A stretch of DNA of 62,817 nucleotides, counting the filler, from Actinomycetota bacterium (GTDB lineage: Bacteria; Actinomycetota; Acidimicrobiia; Spongiisociales; UBA4744), in the NCBI GenBank assembly GCA_013152275.1. It is 6 parts of 6 records of this genome, joined end to end, with 100 filler letters (N's around TTAATTAATTAA, not from the genome) between each part and the next. Parts side by side here need not be neighbours in the genome. Positions count along the whole stretch, not along the records: positions 43,203 to 59,385 come from JAADGS010000049.1; 5 more parts are not named here. The stretch is one strand, 5' to 3'. The notes beneath the pieces are model-generated. The model searched no databases. It worked only from the letters and a program-made list of their open reading frames with translations, and had not been told where the DNA came from. The translations under genes and the position numbers were made by a program. Numbering within the stretch: position 1 is the stretch's first letter; each line of letters begins with the position of its first letter. Below, piece by piece: positions 43,103 to 62,817 of this stretch.

Positions 43103-43218
43103 NNNNNNNNNNNNNNNNNNNNNNNNNNNNNNNNNNNNNNNNNNNNTTAATTAATTAANNNNNNNNNNNNNNNNNNNNNNNNNNNNNNNNNNNNNNNNNN
43201 NNGCAATCAACTCGGTGG

Positions 43219-43292
43219 TGTCACACATCTGTCCGGAACACTGTCACACATGTGTCCGGAACGATCTGTCACCGATCTCCCCGGAATGAACA
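43219..43292. mobile_element. Probable end of an IS481-family element
   Basis: Three related repeats TGTCAC.cat.t..ccggaa (43219, 43242, 43267) ending in ACA; the transposase would lie beyond the contig end. Confidence 0.6.
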
Positions 43293-43352
43293 GGCGGGCT
43301 GTGAGAGGGTGTTTGACATTCTGCTGACAGGGTCATGCCGCAGTCTGAGGGT

Positions 43353-43550
43353 ATGGAAGCGACTCCCGAGACGGGTATCGGCCGGCTGGCGAGACGACCG
43401 ACCAGGGTCGTGATCGACGCCGCGGGACCTCCGGTGCTCACCCCGGCTGCGGCTGGAGTTCTGCAGCGCATCCTGCTGCACGCCGCTGAGCGCGACGGTA
43501 TGATGAATGTCGCACACTCTGCCGCTTGTGCGGTACGCTCGGATTCGTGA
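43353..43550 (+). CDS. 65-aa ORF translationally coupled to the serine recombinase (copy 1)
   Basis: TGATG overlap with the recombinase; same length and core TRV.IDAAGPP.L..AAA..L.RILL.AA as 56566..56763. Confidence 0.7.
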   Translation: MEATPETGIGRLARRPTRVVIDAAGPPVLTPAAAGVLQRILLHAAERDGMMNVAHSAACAVRSDS

Positions 43551-45189
43551 TGCGGTTCGCGTTCTACGGCAGGGTCTCCACAGAGGATCAACAGGACCCT
43601 GAGTCGTCACGCAACTGGCAGCTCGCCCGGTCCCGCCAACTGATCGAACCCGACGGTGAGATCGTCGCCGAGTTCTTCGACATCGGCCAATCCCGTTCAC
43701 TCCCCTGGTCACGCCGCCCGGAAGCCTCAAGGCTCCTTCACATGCTCGCCGATCCGGACCGGGGGTTCGACGCGGTGGTGATCGGCGAACCGCAGCGGGC
43801 TTTCTACGGCAACCAGTTCGGTCTCACCTTCCCCGTGTTTGTCCACTACGGGGTCGGACTGTGGGTCCCCGAAGTTGGCGGTGCCGTCGACCCGGGCTCT
43901 GATGCGCACGAGATCGTCATGAACCTCTACGGCGGGATGAGCAAGGGTGAACGCAACCGCATCAAAACCAGAGTCCGCACCGCGATGGCCGCCCAAGCAG
44001 CCATCGAAGGCCGCTTCCTTGGGGCCGGCCACCCTACGGGTACCAACTCGTCGACGCCGGCCCGCACCCCAATCCGGCCAAAGCGGCCACCGGCCAACAG
44101 CTGCACCGCCTCGAGCCGGATCCGATTGCGGCGCCGGTGGTCCAGAGGATCTTCACCGAGTTCGTCACCGGCCGGGGTCTCTACGCCATCGCCGAGGGAC
44201 TCACCGCAGACGAGATCCTCTCCCCCTCCGCACATGACCCGGCCCGCAACCGCCACCGCACGAGCAGTCGTGGCGCCTGGTCCAAATCGGCCGTTCGGGC
44301 CATCCTCCGCAACCCCCGCTACACCGGATACCAAGTCTGGAACCGCCAAGCCCGCCACGAGATCCTCATCGACGTCGATGACGTTGCTCTCGGCCATGAC
44401 ACCAAGATGCGATGGAACGACCACGACCAGTGGATCTGGTCTGAACAACAAACGCATGAACCGCTCATCACCATGGAGGAGTTCGAAGCGGTCCAAAGGA
44501 TCTTCCGAGGGGCAAATCGCTCAGCGGTCCGTCGCGAGAAGACCAAACGCGGCCCCTACATACTCAGCGGCATGATGCGCTGCGGGGTCTGCGGCCGGCG
44601 GATGCAGGGCTCTTGGAACCACAACCAGCCGTACTACCGCTGCAAGTTCCCGGCCGAGTACGCCATCACCGAGCAACAGCACCCCAAAACCATCTACATC
44701 AAAGAGACAGCAATCACCCCAAGCATCGACCGATGGCTCGCTCAGCTGTTCGACGACGACCACATAGACGACACCTGTGCCGCCCTGGAAGCCGCAACCG
44801 GCCAACAACGCGACGATGACAGCCGCCGGCTCGCCGCTCGTCGCACGATCAAAGCCTGCGACAGCAAGCTTGCCAAATACCGCCAGGCGCTCGAAGCTGG
44901 CACCGACCCCTCAATCGTCGGAGGTTGGATCGAAGAGGTCAAACTCGAAAGGAGGGCAGCCGAGCTGCGGCTTCGAAAGACACACCCCGCCCTGAGCAAG
45001 GACGACATCCGATCACTCGTCCTGCAATCCAAGGGAATCGTCGAGATTCTCGCTCAAGCCGACCCCGAAGACCGGCGAGCCGTCTACCAAGAACTCGGCA
45101 TCTCGATCACCTACCACACGAACGGTCGACTGCACGTTACGGCAGGACCAGCTTCGTGTACTAACGATGGTGTCGGAGGGGGGACTTGA
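43550..45189 (+). pseudogene. Large serine recombinase, frameshifted by one missing G at 44021-44024
   Basis: FYGRVSTEDQQ catalytic motif; colinear with the intact copy at 56763; GGRPPYG is broken in a G4 run; ends VGGGT*. Confidence 0.88.
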
Positions 45190-45192
45190 ACC
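45155..45192. other. Hybrid att site: recombinase 3' end fused to a 25-nt tRNA-Leu-like 3' fragment on the minus strand
   Basis: Reverse complement of 45168-45192 is GGTTCAAGTCCCCCCTCCGACACCA (T-loop, acceptor 3' strand, CCA); core GTGTCGGAGG at 45170-79. Confidence 0.7.
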
Positions 45193-45537
45193 TTGATCCC
45201 ACGCGGCAGCCCATCAGGCGAGTTCCCGCTAGCCGCGTGAAGCCGACAGAAGCCGGACAGGCCCTCCGAGGAACCGGTGAGCTCTGTCGTATAAACCTTG
45301 ATCGGAGCGATTCACTGACTCTGGAAAACGCCCGGGAACCTCTCCTCATCGGGGGTATTGGTTTGTCGCTTCTCCCCCGTTTCCCGGCGGACGATGTGCT
45401 CCTCGAGCTGCCGGGGATCGGACATCAAGGACCCGCGGACGAACACCTGAACGTTCGCGTAGCTCACAGCATCTGCATCGAGTCGGGACTCCCGCCTTCC
45501 CTGGCGTGAGTTGTCGGTGTTCCACACGGTCATCCGG

Positions 45538-46944
45538 CTACTCGTCTGCTCCGGACACTTGGTGCACCTCCGGCTGAGGGATGGAAAGAACTCCAGGAAG
45601 GGACTCGTGTGAAGTGACCTCCGGTTCCTTTTCCGCTTCCTTCGGCTCGGCGAGTTTGGGTGGTCTCGGCTGCCAGGCGGTCAGGTTCTGCACGACATCC
45701 CGGTAGAAGTCCAGTACCTGTGCTCGTGTGATCGCTACGAAGGATCCGTGGCCTTTGCCACGCTTCTCGCCCATCTCGCGGGTCACCGCGACAACGAACG
45801 CTTTCGGCTCCTTCTTCGGATCGGAGGTGAGCAGGACTGTCTCAGGCGACTTTTGCACGTCGGCTACCAGGGCCGAGGTGCTGTCTCGGGTGTGGGGGAA
45901 CTTGACTTCGATCCGGGTGTCGGGCGGAGCGTCTTTGAGCTGTCGGAGCAGCCAGTTGACTCGTGTCTTGGCTCTACCCTCTCGCGGGGCCTTGACCTCG
46001 ATCGACGTGGTCACCTGTCTGCTCACCAGGTCGGCTTCGATATTGACATGTCCGACCGCGTCCGGCACCCTGACCGTTGCTTTGAGCTTGTGCTCGTCGC
46101 GAGCTCCGAGAGTGTCGCAGTGCACGGCGAACCGGGACTTCGCGTCGCTCGCTCTTGGGTAGACCGGTGTCACTTCTCGAATGAGCTTCTGCCGGAGACC
46201 GAGGCACAGGTATTCGACGAATTGTACCCAGTCGGATGCTACCGACCCGATTCCCTTGTCGCCGGGCCGAAGGGTCCGTTGCCGGGCGGCGTTCCTCACC
46301 GCCACCCAATCTGCTCCCATCCCTTCGAAGCCACCTGCACCTGACTTCTCGCTGTCGAGGTAGTCGACCAACTGTCCGAGTATCCACGCCTGCTCAGGAT
46401 CAGAGATTCCATGACGCTGGTTCTTGATGACGGCCTCGGTGAAGATTCGGAACCACGACAGATGCCGGACTGCCTCGAGCTTGTTGAGAAGACGTTTGTT
46501 CGGTTTGAACGGAAGAGCATCAGGCGACGAAACGATCTGGTTCGAGATCGACAGGACGGCATCGAACCCATTGGCAACAGCGATCCCCATGTACCGGTTG
46601 ATCTGCTCGGCGGTGAGTTCGGCATCCCCTGTCTTCACCTCCACCAGGCACACCCATCTGGTCTTCCCCCGCTCGACGATGATCACGCCGTCCGGGATTG
46701 CTATCCCGTCCTCATCCTCGAACTGGACCTCGGTGAAGGTCGAAATCTGGCCTGCCGGTGCATTCAGGTAGGACAGGATCACCTTCCCGAACGAGGGGAC
46801 GATCCCCATCACGGCCAGCAGCGCCGAGGTGGCCCGCTGCTCCTGCTCCTTCACACTCCGAATGCCAACCACCGGGATCAGCCGGGCCGGATGCCACGAC
46901 TCCTCGGGCTTGTCGGTTGGATCGATTGAAATGTCAAGAGCCAT
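45538..46944 (-). CDS. PD-(D/E)XK nuclease-like protein (putative defence)
   Basis: ARLIP..G...EQE.RATSALLA, TFTEV.F, PDG....(W..LVEVK), Q...Y, FDAV.SISN. Confidence 0.65.
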   Translation of the reverse strand: MALDISIDPTDKPEESWHPARLIPVVGIRSVKEQEQRATSALLAVMGIVPSFGKVILSYLNAPAGQISTFTEVQFEDEDGIAIPDGVIIVERGKTRWVCLVEVKTGDAELTAEQINRYMGIAVANGFDAVLSISNQIVSSPDALPFKPNKRLLNKLEAVRHLSWFRIFTEAVIKNQRHGISDPEQAWILGQLVDYLDSEKSGAGGFEGMGADWVAVRNAARQRTLRPGDKGIGSVASDWVQFVEYLCLGLRQKLIREVTPVYPRASDAKSRFAVHCDTLGARDEHKLKATVRVPDAVGHVNIEADLVSRQVTTSIEVKAPREGRAKTRVNWLLRQLKDAPPDTRIEVKFPHTRDSTSALVADVQKSPETVLLTSDPKKEPKAFVVAVTREMGEKRGKGHGSFVAITRAQVLDFYRDVVQNLTAWQPRPPKLAEPKEAEKEPEVTSHESLPGVLSIPQPEVHQVSGADE

Positions 46945-47209
46945 GTTGTACCCCCTACATAGCCGTCTGGTCGCTCCCAACCTACTCCCGGCCGCCATCA
47001 CGGCGCAGATTCGAGTACTGGTCGGACGTTCCGGAAGGCACCGAATCCTGAGACGACACCCAAGACCATCTCGACCTCCACGCGACGACGGACCGCGAGA
47101 GCCCCCGCTGAGGCTGAGCATGACCTCTGCCATGTGAAAACCATCCATGGGGTGTTTGCCACCTGCGGACATGGCCGCCGACATGAGATGTCCGAGAGCG
47201 AGGAGTCGC

Positions 47210-47971
47210 TTACGCTTCGCCCTCGAGTCGGCCGAGAGCTTCCCGCACGACATCGAGGCAGGTCGCCGGGCAGGGCAGATCGCCAAGTTGGTGCCCGAGC
47301 TCAGCCTCCCATGACTCCTCGACCTGGCGTGGAACTCGGGATTCGAGCATCGCCAGGCTGAGTGCGGCGCCGGTGATCTCCTTCACCAGCGCAGGAACCA
47401 CGGAAGTGAAGTACCCGCGCAGCGCGAGATCGTGAAGATCGAACAGATCCCTGGGTGTATGACGGTCGCCCCACGCGATCAGCTTCATCGCAACAAACGA
47501 AGAGCCGGTCGGCACCGTAAGCAACACGTGCTCAGGGAGATCGGAGTACCGGAGCCTGACTTCGGCGGACGTAACTGGCAGCCCTCTCCAGTCGGAACGC
47601 CACCGCGCGAACTGAACGTTCAGCGCGATCGCGTCGCCAACCAGCAGGATCTTGGTATCGACCTCATGGCGTCGTCCACCATCCTCCCAGCGCGTATCTG
47701 GGAACTCTCGCCGAATGCCTCGTGATACCAGGCTCGGCAGTGTCTGGGCGGCATGATTGTGATCGTCAACAAGAAGATCGATGTCTTCCGACAGCCGGGA
47801 GTCTGCACACCACGTTCGACAGAGTGCCGTGCCACCAAAGAACACGATCTCGTTGTTCGAGGTCTCCGACAGCGCTCGGAGCACGTGGCTGATCAGGTGA
47901 TCACGCATGATCTGATCCTCGGGAACACCGAAGGCAGCAACGTGTGCTCGCAACTCATCGGCGGAGATCAT
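47210..47971 (-). CDS. AbiEii/AbiGii-family nucleotidyltransferase toxin (type IV TA)
   Basis: FFGGTAL, RLSEDIDL, K..AW.DR..PRDLFDL. Confidence 0.85.
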   Translation of the reverse strand: MISADELRAHVAAFGVPEDQIMRDHLISHVLRALSETSNNEIVFFGGTALCRTWCADSRLSEDIDLLVDDHNHAAQTLPSLVSRGIRREFPDTRWEDGGRRHEVDTKILLVGDAIALNVQFARWRSDWRGLPVTSAEVRLRYSDLPEHVLLTVPTGSSFVAMKLIAWGDRHTPRDLFDLHDLALRGYFTSVVPALVKEITGAALSLAMLESRVPRQVEESWEAELGHQLGDLPCPATCLDVVREALGRLEGEA

Positions 47972-48587
47972 CGAGAATCCTCCTGACCCGCTCGAGCGCC
48001 GCTCGTCCGCGCGATGCCGCAGCGACCTCCTCCAGGATCTCTGGTGACGCACGCAGAGCAAGAAGACGGATCATTTCCTCGCGCGCAGATTCGGTCACCA
48101 GCCAACGGGGCCAATCGCCCGAAAGGTCGAGCAACGTCTGCTCGACACTCGTCATCCACCCTGGAGTCAACTCCGTACTCGCTCGCACGAGGTCGAGCTT
48201 CGACACGTCGCGAACCACAAACTTGACTGAACCGGCAACGGTCGGCTTCCTGGGTCGCTGATTGGGCACGGCGACGACTGCGGCAGACAGAGCTCTTGGG
48301 TAGCATCCGTGAAGTCTCGCTGCCGAAGGTCCCAGAAGCGCGACTCTGTCGGTGCCATAGTCCGCAGTCGCGATCCCGAGAGCTGCAGCTTCAACCGTCG
48401 GTCGCCAACCCGATGCCGGTCCGCGGTAGGCCTCGGGGACAAGGGCGTAGTAGCCCGTGGCCAATCGGAGAAGTGCACCGGCAGCGGCGAGTCGTCGCAG
48501 TTCCGGTCCGGCATCTTTCACGCGGAAGTCTCCGACCCTCACCACACGATTGTCACGACGAGCTATCTCACTCAAGTAGGTTGACAT
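47955..48587 (-). CDS. AbiEi-family antitoxin (type IV TA)
   Basis: N-terminal wHTH L.RL...G...RL..GYY, L.G.SAARLHG, TSVEQTLLDL; directly upstream of the toxin. Confidence 0.8.
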   Translation of the reverse strand: MSTYLSEIARRDNRVVRVGDFRVKDAGPELRRLAAAGALLRLATGYYALVPEAYRGPASGWRPTVEAAALGIATADYGTDRVALLGPSAARLHGCYPRALSAAVVAVPNQRPRKPTVAGSVKFVVRDVSKLDLVRASTELTPGWMTSVEQTLLDLSGDWPRWLVTESAREEMIRLLALRASPEILEEVAAASRGRAALERVRRILDDLRR

Positions 48588-48595
48588 GGCCTTAG

Positions 48596-48637
48596 TTTAT
48601 AACGAAACGGAGTATTTAGCCCCTGTTTCATCATAAA
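48596..48637. promoter_or_regulatory. Inverted repeat, probable AbiEi autoregulatory operator
   Basis: tttataacgaaac ... gtttcatcataaa (11/13 match) just upstream of the antitoxin start. Confidence 0.55.
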
Positions 48638-48926
48638 GTTCTGCTCAACACCATGCCACGATGAACCCACACCTGGATACCGCGGAAATCCAAGACCATC
48701 AACTCGTCGTGGTAGCAGCCGCTTGCACCAGCCCTTGCACTGCAAGGGCTTGGAGTAGTCATCCGACCGCGACGTCATGCACTGTTTCACACCCTTTTGC
48801 CTGCTTGTCGCCTGCGTTCTCTATGTGTTCAATACCAGAGCACCCACTCCTGACAGGAGAACAAGCTGTGTCTCTGGTCGGGGAAAGACCCGCTCGCAGC
48901 CGTGTAAGTCGCGTCTGTTGTGGCGC

Positions 48927-49123
48927 ATGCTGGACGACGCCGACCCCGTCGGCAAGCGCGCCATCTACAGGGAACTCGGCGTCAAACTCACCTATCACAC
49001 CGACGGCCGGTAGACGTGCCGGCTGGAACGCCCCATGTACTTGGGGTTCGTGTCGGAGGACCGACACCCATGCCGACTACACGGTCAGCACCACTCAGTA
49101 ACTGGTACACAGTCGCGGCGTGA
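48927..49123 (+). pseudogene. 3' remnant of a third serine recombinase containing an att site
   Basis: LDDADP..KRAIYRELG..LTYH.DGR, frameshift, VRVGGPTPMPTTRSAPLSNWYTVAA*, homologous to the C-termini of both other copies. Confidence 0.8.
49034..49083. other. attP-like symmetric site
   Basis: TGTA-N10-GTGTCGG-A-GG-A-CCGACAC-N10-TACA, dyad centred on GG 49058-59. Confidence 0.75.
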
Positions 49124-49459
49124 GGCCCGGCGACTTCTGCGGTGTCAAGGTCTCTCCGGGCTTCCTCGCGCACGCGCACGACCGGGGCGGCTTTGCCACA
49201 CTGCCTGGTCAGGAACCTGATTGGTTGCTCAGCGTTTCGTGTCAATCATCGACGCTTCTCGGCCTCATGCAGACGCGGCGTGGTCGCGGAATTAGAGCCC
49301 GACTCGTCGGGGACAGGTCCATGGACGTGGCCCAGCATCGCAACCCAACAGCCCGATGTGGTCGGCACTCGTGACGTTCCCCCGAGAGAGAATGCCCCTC
49401 GTCGCGCACAAGTTGATCACAGCAACGGCTGTGTGAGAGGAGCTCGATCGCATCGAGTG

Positions 49460-50017
49460 TCACGGACAGGGGGCTTCGACGCCGAGCCGGACCTGTTCCG
49501 TCCGGCCGTCGGTGGTGACGGCAAGAGTGACGCAGGTTGGATCGTCCGATACCCATAGGCCCCCAGGGAAGACGATCCAGTTGTTCCCGTCTCCGGGGCA
49601 GGGACCGACCTCAATGCGAGTGGCCGGCCACCCTGGGTCCCGCGCTCCCTATTCCATGACGGCGGTTCCCGGCTCGGCCTTCACGATCTCGAGGGTCAAC
49701 GCCCGACCGGCACGGACGATGAGCCCAAACTTGGCGAAACGGAGCCCCTCGTGGGCTGTCCCCGGCTCACCATCGCGGCCGAGGTCGAGGGGACAGGGTT
49801 CCAGGGCGATGACGTCGAGCACCCGGAGCGAGAAGAAGGGATCAGGCGAGTTCTCATAGGAGTCGATGAAGCTGGTGCAGTCGACTCGAGTGGCGGGCCG
49901 AAGCGTGGTCGTGGTCGGAGCGACCGGCCCGCCCGTACAGGCCACGGCCACGAGGGACACCACCACGACCAAGACCCCCCAGGCCCCGGATGGACCTGGT
50001 CTCATCTTCTGGCTCAT
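49460..50017 (-). pseudogene. Lipoprotein with an in-frame TAG at 49649-49651
   Basis: Lipobox LVAVAC; frame continues after the stop as GARDPGWPATRIEVGPC...WIVFPGGLWV..PTCV.L...VRLGVEAPCP*. Confidence 0.65.
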
Positions 50018-50056
50018 TCCGGTTGTCCTTTCAGGCGTCTCCCCCGCTGCATCGAG

Positions 50057-50299
50057 TCAGATCGCCAAGAACAACAGCACAGCAACTATGCAGAACCCGA
50101 GGCCGGCTGTCCGGCCTCTGTCGCGGAGGCACTGAAGCTGGATGGTGATAGCCACCAAGTCATGGGAGTTCCTTCCACTTCCGGCTGGTCGGGCCGCAAG
50201 CCAGCCGACGGCACCAAGGAACCCGGCGGCGCACAACAGTCCGAACCACGGTTGTCCGAAGCCTACGGCGACGCCGGCCAGGAAAACCGTCCCAACCAT
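50057..50299 (-). CDS. Small hydrophobic hypothetical protein
   Basis: Three hydrophobic stretches; abuts the upstream gene. Confidence 0.4.
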   Translation of the reverse strand: MVGTVFLAGVAVGFGQPWFGLLCAAGFLGAVGWLAARPAGSGRNSHDLVAITIQLQCLRDRGRTAGLGFCIVAVLLFLAI

Positions 50300-51340
50300 T
50301 CATTCTCCCTCCACGTTGGGGCGACTTCGGGGAACTGTGACCACGCCCGACTCGAATGCTCCGAGGTAGGTGGTTGTGCCATCGGAGATGTCGATGAGCA
50401 GTGGACCTCCGTAGGTTTGGTCACACACAAGGTCGTCGCCGAGCCATTCTCCGTGGAAGCAGTACCCGCCCTCGATGTGCACGCCATCGGCGAGATGGAG
50501 AGTGAGTGTCGACGATCCCAGAGAGTCGCCATCGGCGAGTTGGTGGCGCGACAGCGTGAGGGTGGGTGTGTGATCCGGTTCTATCGCCCCGGTTTGCAGA
50601 AGGACTAGTTCGTCGCCCCTGCGAGACACCGTTAACAGAGAGTCCGTAGACACCGGCAGAACCCATACGACATCGCCTGACAGTGATTGTGTGATGAGGT
50701 CCGTTCCGCCTTCGTTGAGCCAGACCAAGGTCACGAGCCCATCGCTAAGGATCCCCTGTGTCACTCCCGACTCCCATCCGCCTACCGATCCCAGGTCGAT
50801 CCGCTCGTCGTTCTGCAGGTCGACCAGCAGCAACCGCTCGTCCGTGTCCTCGGGTGTCGAGCCGGTTCTCGAAGTCACCACCGCGACACGACGCCCGTCA
50901 GCCACCCCCGCATCGAGCAGGTGCAGATTCTCGTCGTCCTGTGGCAAGGATCGGACACCGTCAGAGTCGAACACGCGAATAGGCCCGTCAGCTGGCCGGG
51001 GGTACACGCTGCTCGGGGTTGATTCCTGAGCGACCACCAGATCGTCACCAAGCATGAATGCAATGGCAGTCGGCTGGTCCCAGAGCTGAACCGTCCCACT
51101 CTCGGTTGTCAGAAAGATCCCGTCATCCGAGGCGACCACCTCCTGCGCAGCCATCGGTAGCAGAGCCGACACAATCGTCGTCGAAGGGGCCCCGCCGGTC
51201 GTCGGAGTGGAGGTCGCCTCGGTTGTGCTGACCGTCGAGTGAGCAGTTGTTGGGGCCGCGATGCTGCTTGTCGTGACCGAGTCCGCAACGGCGCAGCCAG
51301 CAGCCAAGACCATGATCAACACGACGATCAGCCTTCTCAC
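50300..51340 (-). CDS. Acidic beta-rich lipoprotein
   Basis: Signal peptide with lipobox LAAGC, Thr/Ser linker, beta-propeller-like repeats. Confidence 0.7.
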   Translation of the reverse strand: MRRLIVVLIMVLAAGCAVADSVTTSSIAAPTTAHSTVSTTEATSTPTTGGAPSTTIVSALLPMAAQEVVASDDGIFLTTESGTVQLWDQPTAIAFMLGDDLVVAQESTPSSVYPRPADGPIRVFDSDGVRSLPQDDENLHLLDAGVADGRRVAVVTSRTGSTPEDTDERLLLVDLQNDERIDLGSVGGWESGVTQGILSDGLVTLVWLNEGGTDLITQSLSGDVVWVLPVSTDSLLTVSRRGDELVLLQTGAIEPDHTPTLTLSRHQLADGDSLGSSTLTLHLADGVHIEGGYCFHGEWLGDDLVCDQTYGGPLLIDISDGTTTYLGAFESGVVTVPRSRPNVEGE

Positions 51341-51380
51341 TTCTCCGCTCTCCCCTGGAGGGCTGCAGCTCGAGACACCG

Positions 51381-52166
51381 CTACTGCACCTCACTGCAAA
51401 TGTAGTCCCAGTAGCCAGCTGACCTGTTGGCAAGGCCATGTCGCATGATGTAGCCGAGGAACGTCTTCCACGACGCGGCTGACGTCAACGGATTGATGCA
51501 CGACATGTCCAAAGCGGACAGGAGAGAGGTCCATGCAGCCTGGGTGTTGTTGCCCCAGTACCCGTCCGTGTCGATGCCAGCCGAGTTGAAGTCGTTGCAC
51601 AGGTACTGGATGAACTTGGTGTCGTCCGAGTACCTGAGCCAGGGGTGATAGGGGGCCGCAACTGACCCGCAGCTCTTGTCAACATGGATGTGGTTGTCAT
51701 GACCAGTCGGATCGGAGGGAGCATCGATCGTCGCGTTGAAGTACCGCTGCAGGCTCGCGTCTATGGCCCAGTACAGTCGCCTCTCCGCCCGGCTCGACGA
51801 ATTCCAGCTCTCAGAAGGTCTGACAAAGTCCAGATAGGTGCCATTCGAGAAGCGTATGTGGTTCAAGTCCCACGCCTTGCAGTGCTGGTGCCACGAGCAC
51901 CGATTGTGGGCTTCCGTTCCGATGTGGCCGATCCAGGACAAGCCTGTTCCGCGATAGGTGCTGGCGTAGTACGCGAGATTGGCAACCCACGAGCTGCATG
52001 TGGACAGCAGGTCGTTATTGAATCGAGTGCTGACAATCGAGTAGTCATTTGGCCCACTGGTACCACCGTACTTAATCGTGTAGCCACCTACCGACGTGAC
52101 AACGGATGTATTGGAGGTAGACCCGCTACACGGAAGAGTCCCACAGGATTGATTCTGGCTACCCAT
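51381..52166 (-). CDS. Extensin-like/M15-type Zn peptidase domain plus peptidoglycan-binding domain
   Basis: SWH...KAWD (H-x6-D), HDNHIHVD, C-terminal FIQ..C......I..DGYWGNNT. Confidence 0.7.
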   Translation of the reverse strand: MGSQNQSCGTLPCSGSTSNTSVVTSVGGYTIKYGGTSGPNDYSIVSTRFNNDLLSTCSSWVANLAYYASTYRGTGLSWIGHIGTEAHNRCSWHQHCKAWDLNHIRFSNGTYLDFVRPSESWNSSSRAERRLYWAIDASLQRYFNATIDAPSDPTGHDNHIHVDKSCGSVAAPYHPWLRYSDDTKFIQYLCNDFNSAGIDTDGYWGNNTQAAWTSLLSALDMSCINPLTSAASWKTFLGYIMRHGLANRSAGYWDYICSEVQ

Positions 52167-53070
52167 CTACTGACCTCCGATCCGGACATCTACAGAAACC
52201 CCCGGGCCTGTAGAAAGCGATGCAATCTCCGTGGTGCTCTCCGGCCAGCTGTGATCGCCTCCTTCACGCAGAACGACAAAACCTCCTGACGTGTCGTACA
52301 GCACAAGGTCGCCGACAGGCGAAAACCCGACGATCCTCCTGTCGAGAGTGACGGTTGCGCTCGGGCCGCTCAGGGTGTTGTCGACTTCACCTGTCTGCGT
52401 GAGCTTCAGGATGCGCGCACCTGCAGTGGAGGACAGAGCGACGAGCGGGGATCGGCCCAGGAATCCAACGGCCGCTACGGTCTCATGGGCACCGGCTGAC
52501 GGACCCACAACGTGATCCTGTTCGAGGACGGCAATTGAGTCTCGACCGGCGCAGCCCAGTCGATAGAGGCTGAACGCCTCCGGCAAGCCCGCTTCGGCTA
52601 CCTTCTCGAGGAAGATGACGACTGCGTCATCAGAAACGGGAATCATGCCGGCAACCACCCCCCAAACGGCGTGCCAAAGCTTCCTCCCAGCCCGACACGG
52701 TGGAGTTCGGATCCCACCAACCTCCACATGCGAGGGGAGTACGTTGTGCGATTGACAACTCCGGTCCCGCCGGAGGGCCACTGGTCTACTCCGGGTTCAT
52801 CTCGGACATCGGGCGGTTGAACTGCGGTGTAGTCCCCGACGGCGTACTCGTACTCGAAGGCTTCCTCAACTACCCCACCTGCGATGTAGAGGTCGGATCC
52901 CCAATACATGAGTGCCCGCACCACCACTCCTTCAGGTAGCGAGTAGTCGCGCGACGCCCCGGACAGACGGTCGAACGTCTGCAGCGAATACCGAGCCATC
53001 ACACTGGCCACCGCAACCTCAGTGGAAGACGCAGCAACGGTCGCAACACCACTCCTGATCCCCGGGGTCG

Positions 53071-54468
53071 GAGATATCGCCAAATCTTGTGGATCGGGTC
53101 GGGGTGGTCAGGCGGCGTCCCTTGTGTGGTCGGTCCTCCTTTCGACTCGGATCCCGTCTTTGAACTCGATACCGGCTCGCACCTGGGCGACGAGTTCGGG
53201 ACTGTTGACTTTGCGCCATCGGTCCTCGGCGGCGTCGAGGAGCTTGTAGGCCATTACCAGGCCACGGCGACGGCTCCCCGCACCCTTCGTCACTCTCGTT
53301 CTCGCTCTTACGGTCGAAAAGGTCGACTCGATCGGGTTCGTGGTCCGCAGGTGAACCCAATGCGCTGCCGGATAGTCGTAGAAGGTCAACAAGACGTCCC
53401 GGTTCCGGGTGAGCTTCGCCGCGGCTTTGGGATACTTATCGCCGAATTGTCTGACGAACTGGTCGATGCCGGCTTCGGCATCGACCTTCGTCTCAGCCAG
53501 ATAGATCTCATGGATCGCAGCCTTCGCGGTGCGATGGAGCCGTTTCGGTAGAGCGTCGAGAATGTTCGCAGTCGCGTGTACCCAGCATCTCTGCTCAACT
53601 GTGTCAGGGAAGACGTCACCGAGTGCCGCCCAGAACCCCAATGCACCGTCACCGACAGCAACCATCGGCGCCTTCATACCCCGGTTCTTCAAGTCCCGGA
53701 GTACTCCGGCCCACGACTCGGTCGACTCGCGATACCCATCCGAACACGCCAGGAGTTCCTTGGTGCCATCGGCTTTCACACCGATGACGACGAGACAGCA
53801 CAGCCTGTCCTCGGCCAGACGGATACGGAAATGCACCCCATCGGCCCACACATACACCAAGTCCGACCCGGACAGGTCCCGGGACTCGAACGCCGCATAC
53901 TCGTCCGTCCACGTTTCGAGGAGTCGGGTGATCGACGACGCCGACAAGCCGGCATCGGTACCGAAGAACTCGCCCAACGCAGGGGCGAAATCCCCCGTCG
54001 ACAATCCACGCAGATACAACACCGGCAACACGTCGCCGACCTTGGGAGAGCGACGCGCATACTTGGGCAGGATGTAGGACGAGAAGCGGTGGCCGTCGCG
54101 ACGGTCATTGACACGAGGTGCCCGAATCGCCAACGGTCCCGCACCCGTGACCAGGCTCCGCTCCGCAGCCCGACCGTTGCGCACCACCAGGCGATGACCC
54201 ACCTCATCAACCAACCCGGCGTGACGTTCGATGTAATCGGCGACCTCCGTCTCAAGGCCAGCCATCAACATCCTGCGCGCCCCCTCAGCCACCAGATCAT
54301 CCAACGAACCGGCCAAGTCGTCGCGCTCGGCGTCGTCTGTGACTATCTTCAACATCAGGCGTACTCCTTCCCCGCCGGCCAACACCGGCAGAACCCGTTA
54401 CTTAGGTTTGGAAGGGTACGCCGCCCCTCTCTCCGAATCCCGTCATCCACAACATTCGGGTATAGCTC
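53071..54468 (-). mobile_element. IS256-family insertion sequence
   Basis: 23-bp imperfect IRs (gagatatcgccaaatcttgtgga / gagctatacccgaatgttgtgga); 9-bp target duplication ccggggtcg at 53062-70 and 54469-77. Confidence 0.93.
53108..54355 (-). CDS. IS256 (Mutator) transposase
   Basis: RNG...R, LYLRGLSTGD, YVWADG, GDGALGFW, QRCWVH, LRTTNPIES. Confidence 0.95.
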   Translation of the reverse strand: MLKIVTDDAERDDLAGSLDDLVAEGARRMLMAGLETEVADYIERHAGLVDEVGHRLVVRNGRAAERSLVTGAGPLAIRAPRVNDRRDGHRFSSYILPKYARRSPKVGDVLPVLYLRGLSTGDFAPALGEFFGTDAGLSASSITRLLETWTDEYAAFESRDLSGSDLVYVWADGVHFRIRLAEDRLCCLVVIGVKADGTKELLACSDGYRESTESWAGVLRDLKNRGMKAPMVAVGDGALGFWAALGDVFPDTVEQRCWVHATANILDALPKRLHRTAKAAIHEIYLAETKVDAEAGIDQFVRQFGDKYPKAAAKLTRNRDVLLTFYDYPAAHWVHLRTTNPIESTFSTVRARTRVTKGAGSRRRGLVMAYKLLDAAEDRWRKVNSPELVAQVRAGIEFKDGIRVERRTDHTRDAA

Positions 54469-55204
54469 CCGGGGTCGCCCCCGCAGCACTAGACGTCGCA
54501 ACACCAGGCAAGAACACGACACCTGATGCAGCCAACCCCGTCCTGATGAACTCCCTACGCGTCGGCATGTTGTCCTCCCAGAGTGCGGCTTTGCATCGTC
54601 CTCCCCCTCTATTCGAGTTACCGGCTCTTGCGGGTCCTTCCGCTGGTTCATGGTCCCTTCATGTCTGTATGTGTCCGTCAGGGCTGGTTTGTCGCGGGGT
54701 TTCTTGCGTTTGTTTTCGCGACCTGGGGCTCGAAGGGTGGATGCTGGTCGGTGCGGGGGACTGGGACGATGACGATCTGGTGACCAGCAGCTCACCGAGA
54801 CGCTCCAACGCGTCCCGGCCCGCCTCGTCGCCGACGACCCTTCCCAAGCTGGGCCGTCCCGGAGCTACGCGCAGCACCGCCGACCCCATAGAGGTTCGTT
54901 CCTCCGACGCCCATTCCGGCTCTCTTCGGCCATCGAATCGTCTCTTCACGCGAACCACCTCCGATCTTCCCGTGAGCTACGCCCGTTCCTCCCTTCAAGA
55001 GTTCTCTACTGCCTGGTCGCAGGCCTTTCACTTGTGTATTTGCCCGACGGGCGGTTTGGGTTCCCGATTTTGGGAGGCTTTGTTTTCGCGAGCTAGCTCG
55101 CTGGCGTGGTCAGGGGCTGTTCCGGTCGATGGGGGCGAGGAGAATCCGGGGGTGGTGTGGTCGAAAGAAAGCGACGGGCAGGGTTGCCCATCGAGAGAGT
55201 CTCG

Positions 55205-55750
55205 TCAACCGGTGAGGCCCTCTGTTCCGGACGCCCCCCGACGCTGGCGTGTGGACCCTCCGTGGCAGTGTTTGTACTTGCGGCCTGACCCGCACGGGCA
55301 CGGTTCGTTGCGTCCGACCTTGCCCCGCGGCTGTTCAGACCGAGCAGACAGTGCGGCGGCCAGTTCGGCCTGCCGTTCACGGGCGTCGAGGTCGCCCGCC
55401 CGTCGGCGGAGATGCTCGTCCCATGCACGTGGGCGATCTTCGCCGGCCTCCAAGGTCTGTTCGCGGTGGGCGATCTCCGCTTCCCGCTTTGCCAGTTCTT
55501 CGTGGGCCCGGGTCGCGAATACCGGCGCATCTTCTCGGTCGGTGTTGTCGACCACTCCGGCCAGCTCATGGTTGATCAGCATGGCGATGGCTCGGCCCAT
55601 CGAAACCCCGACCGTGTCGCAGTAGCGCCGCCAGGTCGACCACGTCGCCGGTGTCGTCGGGACCCGCACCATCCGCCAGGTCTCGTCTCCTCCGAGGCCC
55701 GAGAGTAGCCGGCGGTCGATCCTCGCGAGCACACCCCGGTCGATTCCCAT
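55205..55750 (-). CDS. Putative ribbon-helix-helix plus coiled coil plus SEC-C motif protein
   Basis: C-terminal [21 protein letters not shown]-terminal strand-helix-helix [29 protein letters not shown]. Confidence 0.7.
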
Positions 55751-55762
55751 CAGGATCCTCCC

Positions 55763-55778
55763 TGTCTACATGTAGACA
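55763..55778. promoter_or_regulatory. Perfect 16-bp palindrome upstream of the RHH/SEC-C gene
   Basis: TGTCTACATGTAGACA, 12 bp from the ATG. Confidence 0.55.
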
Positions 55779-56260
55779 TTGGCAACTGCGTTGCATGTGC
55801 GTGTGGTGTTGAGAGGGTTCTGTGCGCGAGTCGCGCATGTGGCCAGCGATGTCTGTCGGGTCGGGTCTTTCGGCTGCACGATCGTTGGTGGGTGTTGCAT
55901 CGGGTGGTCCTTTCGCTTCAGGTTTGGCTCTTCAGGTTCGGTTCTTTCGGTTTCCAGTCGATCGGCCGACTGGTTTCCCAGATGGGCGTTGTGACCTCCG
56001 GGTTGATTCGGGTTTCGGTGGCCCAGTCCGTGCATGGCAAGCGTTCTGAGCCGTCGAGAGCCCAATCGAGCGGAGATATTCCCCTCCTGTCCTCGCACTT
56101 GGGCACACACGGGGTCTGGCGGCCTCTCCTGGCCGTCTGGGAGGAGAACGGGGCCGATACATCGACTTGACAATCGTTGCTTCGTTTCGCAGCGGATGGG
56201 TTGCAGCGGATGGTCGGGGACATTGCCGAGATCTTCGCCGCCAACCCTGTCGCTGCGATG

Positions 56261-56424
56261 TCAGTAACCCTCCAACTCGACGCTCATGAACGAGGCCTGA
56301 GCATCCCACCCTGCTACCAGAGTGTCCGTAACCCTTTCAGTAACCCTCCAATTCGACGCTCATTGACGAGAACAACCTCCAACCCTTTCATCAGAGTGTT
56401 ATCAGAGTGTCCGTAACCCTTTCA
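56261..56424. repeat. Interleaved direct repeats, iteron-like
   Basis: 34-bp repeat at 56261 and 56337; 22-bp cagagtgtccgtaaccctttca at 56318 and 56403; AACCCT recurring. Confidence 0.7.
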
Positions 56425-56565
56425 ACCGGATCTTTTCGACCCGGCTGCTCCCCCACCGCACCAGCGGCGTCTCGCCCGAACATGAGACGGCGGTGCCGGC
56501 CAGCCGGCGGGCCCTAACAGGGTGTCCGGCATTCTGCTGACAGGGTCGTATCGCATTGTGTGGAG

Positions 56566-56763
56566 ATGGAACAGTCTGCGGGTTTGGACGCCGATCGACT
56601 GGCGAGAGCAGCGACCAGGGTCATCATTGATGCTGCGGGACCTCCGATCCTCAACGAGGCCGCAGCTCAGGCGCTGCTGCGCATCCTGCTGCGCGCCGCC
56701 GACCGCAACGATGTGCCGAATGTCGCACACCCAGTGGCTTCTGCGGTACGCTCGGTTTCGTGA
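56566..56763 (+). CDS. 65-aa ORF translationally coupled to the serine recombinase (copy 2)
   Basis: Homologous to 43353..43550; TGATG overlap. Confidence 0.7.
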   Translation: MEQSAGLDADRLARAATRVIIDAAGPPILNEAAAQALLRILLRAADRNDVPNVAHPVASAVRSVS

Positions 56764-58451
56764 TGCGGTTCGCGTTCTACGGCAGGGTCTCTACCGAAGA
56801 TCAACAAGACCCCGAGTCGTCTCGCAACTGGCAGCTCGCCCGGTCCCGCCAACTCATCGAACCAACAGGGGAGATCGTCGTCGAGTTCTTCGATGTGGGT
56901 CAGTCCCGCTCCCTCCCCTGGTCACGAAGACCAGAAGCCTCCAAACTGCTCCAGACGCTCGCCGATCCGGACCGGGGGTTCGACGCGGTGGTGATCGGCG
57001 AACCCCAGCGGGCGTTCTACGGCAACCAGTTCGGCCTCACGTTCCCCGTCTTTGTGCACTACGGGGTCGGCCTGTGGGTCCCCGAAGTCGGAGGTGCGGT
57101 CGACCCGGGCTCGGATGCGCATGAGATCGTCATGAACCTCTATGGGGGGATGAGCAAAGGGGAACGCAACCGTATCAAAACCAGAGTCCGCACCGCGATG
57201 GCCGCCCAAGCCGCCATCGAAGGCCGATACCTGGGCGGACGGCCACCCTACGGATACGTGTTGGCCGACGCCGGCCCGCACCCCAACCCCGCCAAAGCAG
57301 CCGCCGGTCAAACGCTGAAGAAACTCGAACCCGACCCGACAGCAGCGCCCGTGGTGCAGAGGATCTTCGCCGAGTACCTTACCGGGAAAGGTCTGTATGC
57401 GATCGCCGAAGGACTCACCGCAGACGGGATCCTCTCCCCCTCCGCTCACGACCCTGGCCGCAACCGGCACCGCTCCGGCAGTCGAGGCGCCTGGTCCAAG
57501 TCGGCGGTCCGGGCCATCCTCCGCAACCCCCGCTACACCGGACACCAAGTCTGGAACCGCCAACGACGCGACGAAGAACTCATCGACGTCAACGACGTCG
57601 GCCTCGGCCACCAAACCAGAATGCGCTGGAACCACCCCAACCAATGGATCTGGTCAGAGAACCCGACCCACCCAGCCATCATCGACGCCGAGACCTACCA
57701 GGCTGCCCAGGAGGCGTTCGGTCGCACCAAGCGACGGGCACCGCGCCGCACCGGGCGCCGCTACCTGCTCTCCGGTCTCATCCGCTGTGGAGTATGTGGG
57801 CGACGCATGGCCGGCCAGCAGAACCACGATCACCCTTACTACCGGTGTCGGTTTCCCGACGAGTACGGCATCGGAGCGGACCAGCATCCCCGCAACGTCT
57901 ACGTGAAAGAGTCCGCAGTGACCCCCGGGCTCGACCGGTGGCTCGGAACCCTCTTCGACGACGACCACCTCGAGGAGACGGCCGAGATTCTCGCCGGCTC
58001 CTCACAACCCGACCCCGACGACCAAGCCCGCAAAGGTGCCCTCGCCGAACAGATCCACGACTGCGACCGGCGTCTCGGCCAATACCAGGCCGTACTCGAC
58101 GAAGGCGCCGACGCCAAAGTGGTGGCCCGCTGGATGGCCCAAGTCCAACGAGAACGCGCCAACCTGCAAGCCCAGCTCGGCCACACCATCCCCGGCGGGA
58201 AACTCACCAGTACACAGGTCCGTGCTCTGGTCGAAGCCCTCCGCGACATCGTCACCGTCCTCGCCGAAGCCGACCCCCAAGACAAAGCAGAACTGTACGG
58301 AGAACTGGGTGTGGACCTGACTTATCACCCTGAAGGGAGCATCTCTGTGAAGATGCTCCCGCGTGGGGTAAAGGTTCGTGTCGGAGGAGCGATACCGATG
58401 CTGACTACACGACCGGCGCCACTCGCCAGGGCCTACTCCGTCACAGTCTGA
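56763..58451 (+). CDS. Large serine recombinase, intact
   Basis: Resolvase domain FYGRVST, recombinase domain GGRPPYGY..IL.NPRYTG, Zn ribbon LSGLIRCGVCG..YYRC, coiled coil. Confidence 0.95.
   Translation: MRFAFYGRVSTEDQQDPESSRNWQLARSRQLIEPTGEIVVEFFDVGQSRSLPWSRRPEASKLLQTLADPDRGFDAVVIGEPQRAFYGNQFGLTFPVFVHYGVGLWVPEVGGAVDPGSDAHEIVMNLYGGMSKGERNRIKTRVRTAMAAQAAIEGRYLGGRPPYGYVLADAGPHPNPAKAAAGQTLKKLEPDPTAAPVVQRIFAEYLTGKGLYAIAEGLTADGILSPSAHDPGRNRHRSGSRGAWSKSAVRAILRNPRYTGHQVWNRQRRDEELIDVNDVGLGHQTRMRWNHPNQWIWSENPTHPAIIDAETYQAAQEAFGRTKRRAPRRTGRRYLLSGLIRCGVCGRRMAGQQNHDHPYYRCRFPDEYGIGADQHPRNVYVKESAVTPGLDRWLGTLFDDDHLEETAEILAGSSQPDPDDQARKGALAEQIHDCDRRLGQYQAVLDEGADAKVVARWMAQVQRERANLQAQLGHTIPGGKLTSTQVRALVEALRDIVTVLAEADPQDKAELYGELGVDLTYHPEGSISVKMLPRGVKVRVGGAIPMLTTRPAPLARAYSVTV
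58362..58411. other. attP-like site inside the recombinase 3' end
   Basis: Core GTGTCGGAGG at 58378-87; right arm agcgataccgatgctgactacacg homologous to 49060-83. Confidence 0.7.
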
Positions 58452-58826
58452 AACGCGATGGAATCGGATTGGGGATGGTGAGGAGGATGACCTCCTCGTC
58501 GATCTCGTACACCTACGGCATACGTGAAGCAAAGCGGCAACAGTCTGCCACTCGACATCGAGGCGTTCTATCTTGCCATCGACCTGCTCAGAGCAGCCGG
58601 CCCAGGCCCCCAGGTACGAGCGGCCCTCATCGAAGTGTTCGCCGAACTCCTTGTCACCCTCGTCGACCAGACACCCGACGGATCCGTCGCACTCGCCATC
58701 AGCTACAACCAGCCCCCATACCTAAGTCACCGTCACGGCTCACACCCTTTGTCACCAACTAGCAAGCGTTTCTTGGAGCGAGGGCCGTGTTTCCGGGAAA
58801 CTGGAGACACGTCGACAGCTCGTTCC

Positions 58827-59385
58827 CTAGGGGGACGTTGCCTGCCGGGACGCGACCATCTGTTCGAGGATGGGAATAATGCTGTGGGAGCACGCCTGCT
58901 CGGCGGCTGCGAACTGCGCGTTAGCGACGCCTGAGAACGGGTCCCAGTTTGCTTCCTCAAGGAACGCCTGTTCCGATGGTGGCTCGGATGGCTGAAACCC
59001 GTGATCGATCAGGCACTGATACTGGACCAGCCTCGCCTGATACTCGGCAGCCCTGAACTCGTGGGTTGCGGGCGCGAGAGCAGCCACTAACCCCGAGTCG
59101 ATCGCCACCTGCCCACACGCGGCCCGCACTTGGTTGTACTGGTCCATCTGGACGCCGGTCGCTACCGCGAACCCCTGACCGCTAGGATCGAGGGTGACGG
59201 TGAACCCGGCCGACTCAATGCAGGAAGCGAGATAGCCGATGTGTTCCTCGCTGCCATATGGAACGATCCCCCCGCGAAGCAGCAAGTCGGCGTACGGTCC
59301 GAGCTTCTCTCGATACTCCGGGTCTTTGGGAGTCGGCACCGGTGGCGGCGCCCACCCCGACACCACCGTCCCCTCGCTCCCTGAG
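58827..59385 (-). CDS. Secreted/lipoprotein-like hypothetical with four spaced Cys, 5'-truncated
   Basis: CIESAG...AC...QCL..HG...EPPS.QAF...WDP...AC pattern; open to the contig end. Confidence 0.6.
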
Positions 59386-59501: not shown

Positions 59502-59578
59502 GGGGGTGTAGCTCAGTCCGGCAGAGCACTACGTTCGCAACGTAGGGGCCAGGGGTTCAAATCCCCTCACCTCCACCA
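59502..59578 (+). tRNA. tRNA-Ala(CGC)
   Basis: Acceptor GGGGGTG/CACCTCC with G3:U70, anticodon arm ctacg-ttCGCaa-cgtag, T arm agggg-ttcaaat-cccct, encoded CCA. Confidence 0.95.
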
Positions 59579-61957: not shown

Positions 61958-62022
61958 GAGGTGTTGAGCACAAAACCCCCGGTCAGAGCAGATATGACCC
62001 GGTCAGAGTGGTGGGGGCGCTG

Positions 62023-62069
62023 CGTTCGCAACGTAGGGGCCAGGGGTTCAAATCCCGTCACCTCCACCA
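62023..62069 (+). repeat. Duplicated 3' half of tRNA-Ala (att site)
   Basis: Anticodon loop to CCA; no 5' acceptor strand or D arm upstream. Confidence 0.9.
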
Positions 62070-62120
62070 GGAAGTAGCCCCTGTGTCCCAAGGGCAGCCC
62101 GTCATTTCAGCCTTGCTGCC

Positions 62121-62817
62121 CTACAGCTCTAATCCTCGCTCTGTGCGCGTTCTGTGAGCGATCGCGTCGGCGATGATCTGTTCGAGGCGGTCGGCGGCGA
62201 CTTCGTCGAGGGGTTCGTAGAGGTGCCCGTAGATGTCGAGGGTGGTCTTGATCGACGTGTGGCCGAGTCGTGCCTGGAGTAGCTTCGGGTGCGTGTTCGC
62301 TGCGATCAGCAGCACAGCGTGGGTATGTCTCAGGTCATGAAACCGCATGGGTTGTCCGACGGATGCCGCCACGGCGGGGAGCCAGAATCGCTGCCGGAAG
62401 CTACGGCGCCGGAGCGGGCCGCCTTGCGGTGCGGTGAAGACCCGGTCAGTGCGTCCGGTGCCGTGGTGGTCGAGGTGGGCGGCGAGTTCCCCGAACCGTG
62501 CCCCGGTGTAGCCAGCGGTCAGGACAAGGGTGCGGTGGCGGGGGTCGATGGTGTCGGCGAGGTCGTGGAGTTCGTCCACGCTGAGGAACCGCTTCTCGGT
62601 CTCGATGCGTTTGGGGAGGTTCACATCCGCACAGGGTGTGCGTTGGATGAGGGCGTCGTCTGTGGCGGCGTTGAACGCCATGGACACCGACCCGTAGGCG
62701 AGCTGGATCGTGGCAGGCGCATAGCCCTCCTCGGCGAGTTCACTGATCCAGTCCTGAACGTCGTGTCGGGTGATGTCACGGAGCCGCCGGGTACCGAAGC
62801 AGGGGAGGACGAGGGAG
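62121..62817 (-). pseudogene. Tyrosine integrase, 5' cut by window end, with an internal in-frame deletion
   Basis: TGARFGEL, FHDLRH, RLGH, YGH present, but the beta-strand/catalytic Lys segment between box I and the following helix is missing. Confidence 0.8.

Follow-up and report, generated by a model that had tools for sequence, protein, structure and literature searches.

A serine recombinase gene that spans its own attachment site at tRNA-Leu(GAG) in Acidimicrobiia, with an exchangeable tail that is probably a degradation tag

Recombinase genes that overlap their own attachment (att) site are already known from DsiB and Mx8, as is a degradation tag switched by integration, from the repressor of mycobacteriophage BPs. 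In the passages available to us of McMurdie et al. (2011; PMC3146451), on the ssrA-specific islands of Dehalococcoides, the large serine recombinase (LSR) DsiB has a 3′ end that overlaps att with its stop codon past the boundary, and the islands stand in tandem at an RNA gene, some of them without a recombinase; the authors suggest a possible regulation, leave the meaning of the overlap open and liken DsiB to CcrB. Passages on BPs (PMC3694055) describe an attP inside an open reading frame (ORF) from which integration removes a C-terminal proteolysis tag, an -AA-type Clp signal, and those on Mx8 and SSV cited in the Islander work (PMC4383910) describe integrases that extend across attP and whose own C-terminus is altered by integration. 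Serine recombinases at one tRNA-Leu gene in Actinomycetota appear in the available passages on the AICEs (integrative and conjugative elements of actinomycetes) of Mycobacterium (Ghinet 2011, PMC3218068). Here we analyze an LSR gene of an Acidimicrobiia bacterium (Actinomycetota; assembly GCA_013152275.1) in a stretch of 62,817 nucleotides joined from six parts of the genome (hereafter the window), in which the analyzed region is one 16,183-bp contig (C78; JAADGS010000049.1; window positions 43203-59385) of a 3.07-Mb genome in 100 contigs. Three cores on this contig are the junctions of a tandem island array, LSR-inserted at the 3′ end of tRNA-Leu(GAG). To judge from its sequence and relatives, the recombinase almost certainly exchanges its C-terminal tail at the core, and the tail of about 20 residues probably acts as a Clp degradation tag; the two together form our best explanation, one we hold to be reasonably probable as a whole.

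The tRNA-Leu family shares the att-overlapping recombinase 3′ end, the tandem islands and the recombinase-less islands with DsiB. The target differs, being tmRNA for DsiB and tRNA-Leu(GAG) here; the passages on DsiB describe its C-terminal part as divergent and mention no degron, and its islands carry a module of six genes, DsiA, ParB and Mom among them, that was not found among the 17 window ORFs scanned. BPs switches its repressor, and the passages do not describe a tag on its integrase as switched, whereas here the recombinase ORF itself holds the site. The BPs integrase is of the tyrosine family. The integrases of Mx8 and SSV are also tyrosine enzymes, in contrast to the LSR described here, and we know of no ssrA-like tail on either. 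The serine recombinases of the AICEs are possibly of the same family; AICEs are conjugative, their passages mention neither att overlap nor tail, and neither Tra (FtsK) nor Rep was found among the window ORFs scanned, on a contig that ends at gaps on both sides. Staphylococcal SCC/Ccr elements, known as composite arrays, are likewise LSR-driven composite islands at one site, but against the cut-off of 900 the CcrB model gives 18 bits here and the CcrC model 30. The recombinase is an LSR and not a member of the DsiB, Ccr or BPs type. The literature searched, partly in excerpt, describes no att-switched degron on a serine recombinase, and supplements and paywalled papers may bear on novelty. The word tRNA is absent from the main text of Durrant 2022 (PMC10083194), and the accessible parts of PMC9513070, PMC10654092, PMC12884075 and PMC5861418 contain nothing further on the combination.

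The core GTGTCGGAGG is found at 45170, 49050 and 58378, on the + strand throughout in a search of the window. Shuffled controls hold a mean of 0.5 cores and 3 of 100 shuffles attain three, so that the count by itself is only mildly unusual; the three cores are not chance because every one of them lies where sequence homologous to LSRs has its 3′ end. The original prediction had described three recombinase 3′ ends that share this core, and its translations (VGGGT and a stop across 45170, and reading frames that end in PTPMPTTRSAPLSNWYTVAA and a stop across 49050 and in AIPMLTTRPAPLARAYSVTV and a stop across 58378), as well as a dyad at 49034-83, were all reproduced in the sequence, with the two tails being 20 rather than 19 amino acids past VGG. 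All three ends are indeed LSR-homologous, but copy 1 is frameshifted, copy 2 is a remnant and only copy 3 is intact. In the latter the core (58378-58387) lies inside the ORF, in agreement with the claim of an att site in the recombinase's own 3′ end.

A genome scan for protein homology confirmed 164 relatives, of which we took the best 80, distributed over 79 loci; where record titles name a taxon, it belongs to Actinomycetota. Including the own-genome copies, 84 LSR ends stand at a core, two loci being without a core (L055, L070) and one without a hit reaching the end (L073). To the right of the core there is an antisense tRNA-Leu arm in 64 of the 84 ends and a non-tRNA arm in 20, and in these alignments the tRNA class and the tail class part exactly after the central dinucleotide, which is the sharp breakpoint at GG that had been foreseen. 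Identity of the 10-bp core is insufficient alone for placing the cut. A C[AG]TG half-site motif, scored on element and tRNA arms, starts 24 nt from the central GG in element arms (37 of 84 on the left, 10 of the 20 non-tRNA arms on the right), compared with 19 nt in 61 of 64 tRNA arms. The sites are of about 50 bp, and because the spacing follows the 5-bp shift of the outer motif between attP and attB arms in characterized LSRs (passages of PMC3783163), we place the center of the att site at GG. In one relative (G336) the position of the central dinucleotide reads GA at both element ends and in the tRNA.

The predicted tRNA-Leu target is confirmed within the genome itself, where two more LSRs (66% identical to copy 3; contigs C72 and C98) enter a complete antisense tRNA-Leu(GAG) at the same core; three further tailed cores lie on contig C12. 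The element at locus L001 extends from one core to the next; it has a tail on the left and encodes an LSR with 90% identity to copy 3, and its DNA matches that of copy 3 as far as the core, beyond which it passes into the tRNA arm. Among public contigs, one of run X4 departs from copy 3 at 58387 and continues in the tRNA arm, and one of run X3 departs at 58389. With L120, where the site looks empty and is flanked by a hairpin, and the sites that combine flank and tail (L117 2335, L083, L096, L100), four site classes are represented, as judged by eye. In all that we compared, the identity of the recombinase end is set by whatever lies across the core. The frame in which the core is crossed varies among the 84 ends (VGG in 26, VSEG in 40, CPRG or CRRG in 18), and the V-G-G reading of the original prediction is one of three. 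The tRNA-Leu(GAG) genes at C72 3783-3870 and C98 11092-11179, each behind its own LSR, are identical, for which strain variants or a duplication are possible, and C12, C78, C72 and C98 may be parts of one array.

Copy 1 had been taken for the tRNA-integrated form, an assignment that did not survive. The inner right arm at 45170 is identical to the tRNA-Leu(GAG) 3′ end, but this likeness comprises merely 25 nt; neither ARAGORN nor Rfam finds a tRNA at 45170, the outer CACG motif of the right arm stands at element spacing, and past the stop the frame continues as TLIPRGSPSGEFPLAA and a second stop, with 83% identity over 72 nt to the tail of the complete element L001. These three observations rule out a tRNA junction, and copy 1, as its sequence reads, is a tailed junction with a premature stop. 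An extra T at 44022 in runs X1 and X2, considered as an intact allele of copy 1, was dropped and may derive from a paralog. A joint of 49060 to 58400 in X1, with 28 letters on its short side, was left unused and probably reflects the wrong placement of a paralogous contig, C12 for instance.

Codon usage indicates that the tails are selected as a peptide. A core-plus-motif pattern has matches in 112 of 401 genomes of the class, and from the 150 matches listed, 40 regions were fetched, selected by the arm's opening bases with the end of the tail left out of account; with own-genome sites and three earlier loci these gave 64 unique non-tRNA sites (68 with duplicates). In the VGG frame 26 of the 64 tails end in -AA, about 40-fold over the background of 0.8-1.0% before a stop, and at least one such tail is present in 20 of 31 genomes or records; none of the 64 tRNA-joined LSR ends has this ending. 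A stop falls at 19-26 codons in 42 of 64 sites in the VGG frame versus 7 of 64 in each other frame. Within a length window of 19-24 codons, set post hoc, 23 of 41 tails end in -AA, and these 23 use four Ala codons at each of both places and all three stop codons. In the GEF tail family identity is 0.71, 0.95 and 0.42 at codon positions 1, 2 and 3, and 0.33 past the stop. Four tail families in total show lowest conservation at the third position and identity of about 0.3 beyond the stop, and a fifth, in another frame, mostly ends in -LAA too. Among 19 hand-assembled units, which span all three frames and the longest of which may hold unseen cores, the cognate frame holds a stop 19-27 codons from the core in 17, compared with 3 of 38 other frames; the prediction that the tails are conserved as an open frame in homologues is borne out. 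Short -LAA endings in the VSEG frame (12 of 64) were left uncounted, since nearly all derive from one arm motif in which a DNA constraint is inseparable, and one sample had been selected for them. At L121-L127, L131, L147 and L162-L183 one arm motif gives -LAA and a stop at 8 codons (VSEG) and a longer -AA tail in another frame, possibly a two-frame tag from which a DNA constraint is inseparable.

A C-terminal -AA is an established Clp degradation signal. The tmRNA tags of 12 relatives all end in -AA (AEDNFALAA in 9), and the own-genome tmRNA has a frame ending in -LAYAA and a stop, found by eye, the tag not being identified by ARAGORN. ClpX and ClpP motifs are found in the genome, and a pattern search of the genome for ClpC gave no match. 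A degron is likely in Acidimicrobiia, where the sequence-level features of a tag are present. As a side observation, the tmRNA of this genome (G000 C58 18102-18456) and those of 7 of 20 relatives score 62-74 bits versus 142-193 in the others and represent a divergent form.

We propose that the recombinase gene, spanning its own att site, would end short beside the tRNA and would gain the tail when joined to an element arm. The free circle would encode the tailed, short-lived form, limiting activity and re-integration, and insertion at tRNA-Leu would strip the tail and leave an untagged, more stable enzyme; by analogy, the mechanism is likely that of the BPs tag switch, moved onto the recombinase. 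In arrays the sole untagged copy would be the one adjacent to the tRNA, and newcomers would mostly insert on the tRNA side, their tail passing to the displaced recombinase, which would then decay. Insertion on the tRNA side, with a loose reading of the left arm, is suggested because on inspection the tRNA-nearer copy is usually more intact (the window, L002, G164, G083, G336 and three Streptosporangium arrays), although the intactness of genes had been part of the choice of these loci. No LSR sequence is detectable in 26 of the 38 units that run from core to core, and -AA tails are kept in 11 of these 26 versus 2 of the 8 that carry a full LSR. Since LSR-less units keep such tails, the tRNA-Leu arrays of Acidimicrobiia might tentatively be viewed as self-limiting cassettes, in which every unit, whether or not it has a recombinase of its own, would start with an ssrA-mimic tail and graft it onto the recombinase to which it is joined, only the tRNA-adjacent enzyme would be stable and insertions would condemn their predecessors, although we regard this extension as doubtful.

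Several observations weigh against these proposals. The tail sites are kin and not independent, which means that their p-values overstate, and the 64 sites were selected by hand according to how the arm starts. In the 19 units that have a cognate recombinase or a remnant of one, only 3 tails end in -AA and 5 in -A; -AA endings are absent in several lineages, and Streptosporangium tails end in -LD, -VD or -PE. The intact copy 3 of the window itself ends in -VTV, and what precedes the -VAA tail at 49050 is no gene but a broken remnant, about 60 codons long; the ssrA-like ending that had been predicted stands for 26 of 64 tails, in which it resembles tmRNA tags, but is not universal. G094 has a remnant next to the tRNA and its intact copies farther out, and the displaced recombinases of G111 and G296 are untagged because they are out of frame with the neighbor's tail. 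The circular attP junction that had been proposed as a check was not found in four sequencing runs, whose contigs drop rare forms so that absence is not demonstrable. Finally, characterized LSRs refuse the site pairings that tandem formation requires (passages of PMC3783163); the same pairing rules suggest that the unit from 49050 to 58387, having an attP-type junction on each side, may be unable to excise alone. Two units on contig C59 of G094 (L110-L112) form a block of about 22 kb that stands in tandem duplicate, with a remnant beside the tRNA.

Could the tail serve the activity of the enzyme rather than its lifetime? It might fold back or block the cofactor groove, so that long and short forms would differ in integration and excision, and the two forms of the Mx8 tyrosine integrase reportedly do differ in activity. 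We consider this unlikely, even though tail length and frame are kept without -AA (the 17 of 19 units above), Streptosporangium tails retain a W-L-x-L pattern but have acidic ends, and one model has a short helix at tail residues 554-562. Recombinase types exchange tails, and the convergent ending hydrophobic-x-hydrophobic-A-A-stop is seen in at least five unrelated tail families that have little else in common. The copy 3 tail is not confidently placed in either of two models (pLDDT below 50, as expected because the alignment is shallow there), and a fold-back was not seen, which is a weak test.

A more trivial reading, also listed for DsiB in the passages of McMurdie et al. (PMC3146451), is that the tail merely gives a near stop to a gene that overlaps attP, the likeness of the peptides stemming from a DNA-binding constraint on the P′ arm together with descent. 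It would explain why the T-T-R or T-P-R portion coincides with the CACG DNA motif and why frames differ within the family. A much nearer stop would be possible, however, the excess of -AA is left over, and the last 8 codons, outside the 25-bp arm, nevertheless show synonymous-site variation and a drop of identity at the stop. We regard this reading as improbable overall; the codon-position data largely refute it for Acidimicrobiia, and it may hold in lineages without -AA. Still more improbable, in our estimate, is that the tag acts mainly in trans, with LSR-less cassettes keeping a tail so that it can be grafted onto the resident recombinase responsible for their insertion or co-excision. The higher share of -AA in units without a detectable LSR would fit, but those samples are small and related, the class includes short remnants missed by the profile, such as the 45170-49050 unit of the window, recent loss of the recombinase fits equally well, and frame mismatches exist.

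If tail swap and degron are both true, the lifetime of the recombinase would be governed by the product of its own reaction, and for one family there would be an answer to the question, raised by DsiB, of the role that a 3′ end overlapping att plays. A control mechanism would also be at hand for tandem island arrays in which several recombinases share sites. Since most annotated members of the family are the tRNA-joined short form, tool mining would clone a form that the free element would not encode. As for free forms, there was no match in phages, no clear circle in six viral contigs and no match (0) to the tail pattern in viral contigs; of two plasmid records, one holds a tRNA-joined copy and one is without a recognizable core. 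Of 56 sites that show no LSR homology, 4 (L128 3651 and 10829, L141 6057, L144 12167, oriented coordinates; three genomes) have an SOS-box-like motif, CGAAC-N4-GTTCG, adjoining the core on its left, versus 0.5% of random windows.

Copy 3 has Resolvase, Recombinase and zinc-ribbon domains in LSR order, its fold matches serine integrase structures, and R9, S11 and T12 of the N-terminal catalytic Ser motif are invariant across 45 sequences. Immediately 5′ of the recombinase, an ORF of 50-65 aa scores in 72 of 80 loci and in none on the reverse strand, with a profile built from 25 of those same sequences. It has no Pfam or NCBIfam family, and an Atlas search gave one unnamed actinobacterial cluster (0.76), a lead only. 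A complex model of the 65-aa protein with copy 3 residues 190-540 scores 0.82, the best of 3 controls scoring 0.00, where the mark for this score is reached by 116 of 157 solved pairs and 2 of 215 mismatched pairs; contact agreement between runs is at least 60% and partner pLDDT at least 62. The modeled contacts (residues 381-415 and 482-532) lie on either side of the zinc-domain coiled coil (helices 419-474 in the model), and recombination directionality factors (RDFs) bind at the zinc-domain/coiled-coil region, where false positives also occur (passages of PMC12286644). The 65-aa protein is a candidate RDF, predicted to be the excision cofactor, and could instead be a structural subunit. The family combines a conserved tRNA-Leu(GAG) target across Actinomycetota with a candidate excision cofactor. 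Features of the contig are collected in Table 1.

Table 1. Features of contig C78 in window coordinates
Feature	Position	Strand	Remark
65-aa conserved ORF, candidate RDF	43353..43550	+	stop overlaps recombinase 1 start
LSR copy 1	43550..45189	+	frameshifted near 44020; terminates VGGGT-stop
Junction 1, P-P′ type	45154..45203	+	core 45170-45179
GEF..AA-family tail	45180..45240	+	TGA at 45187-45189 interrupts; ends -FPLAA-stop
Cargo, 582-aa protein	45538..47286	-	without match in Pfam or NCBIfam
Cargo, AbiEii/AbiEi type IV toxin-antitoxin pair	47210..48587	-	
LSR 3′-end remnant (copy 2)	48927..49059	+	frameshift plus stop
Junction 2, dyad	49034..49083	+	both arms attP-type; core 49050-49059
20-codon tail	49060..49123	+	ends -WYTVAA-stop; left end of the 9.3-kb unit bearing recombinase 3
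Cargo, Mutator-family transposase	53108..54385	-	
SEC-C motif protein	55205..55750	-	
65-aa conserved ORF, candidate RDF	56566..56763	+	overlaps recombinase 3 start
Intact LSR copy 3, 563 aa	56760..58451	+	Resolvase, Recombinase, Zn ribbon; long form, ends -YSVTV-stop
Junction 3, P-P′ type	58362..58411	+	core 58378-58387 within recombinase ORF
20-codon tail	58388..58451	+	given by next unit

The cargo at 45538-48587, the 582-aa protein without annotation and the AbiEii/AbiEi pair, may represent defense genes. An ORF similar to the SEC-C protein (55205-55750) is found upstream of the C98 LSR and at the end of C12, and the protein is possibly a module component. Direct repeats lie 5′ of the small ORF and recombinase at 56261-56370 and 43219-43287 (34 nt twice, 21 nt three times). 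The next contig of the window carries a separate tRNA-Ala island, with tRNA-Ala(CGC), a 148-nt repeat (79%) of its 3′ part and a piece of a tyrosine integrase (59502-59578, 62017-62687).

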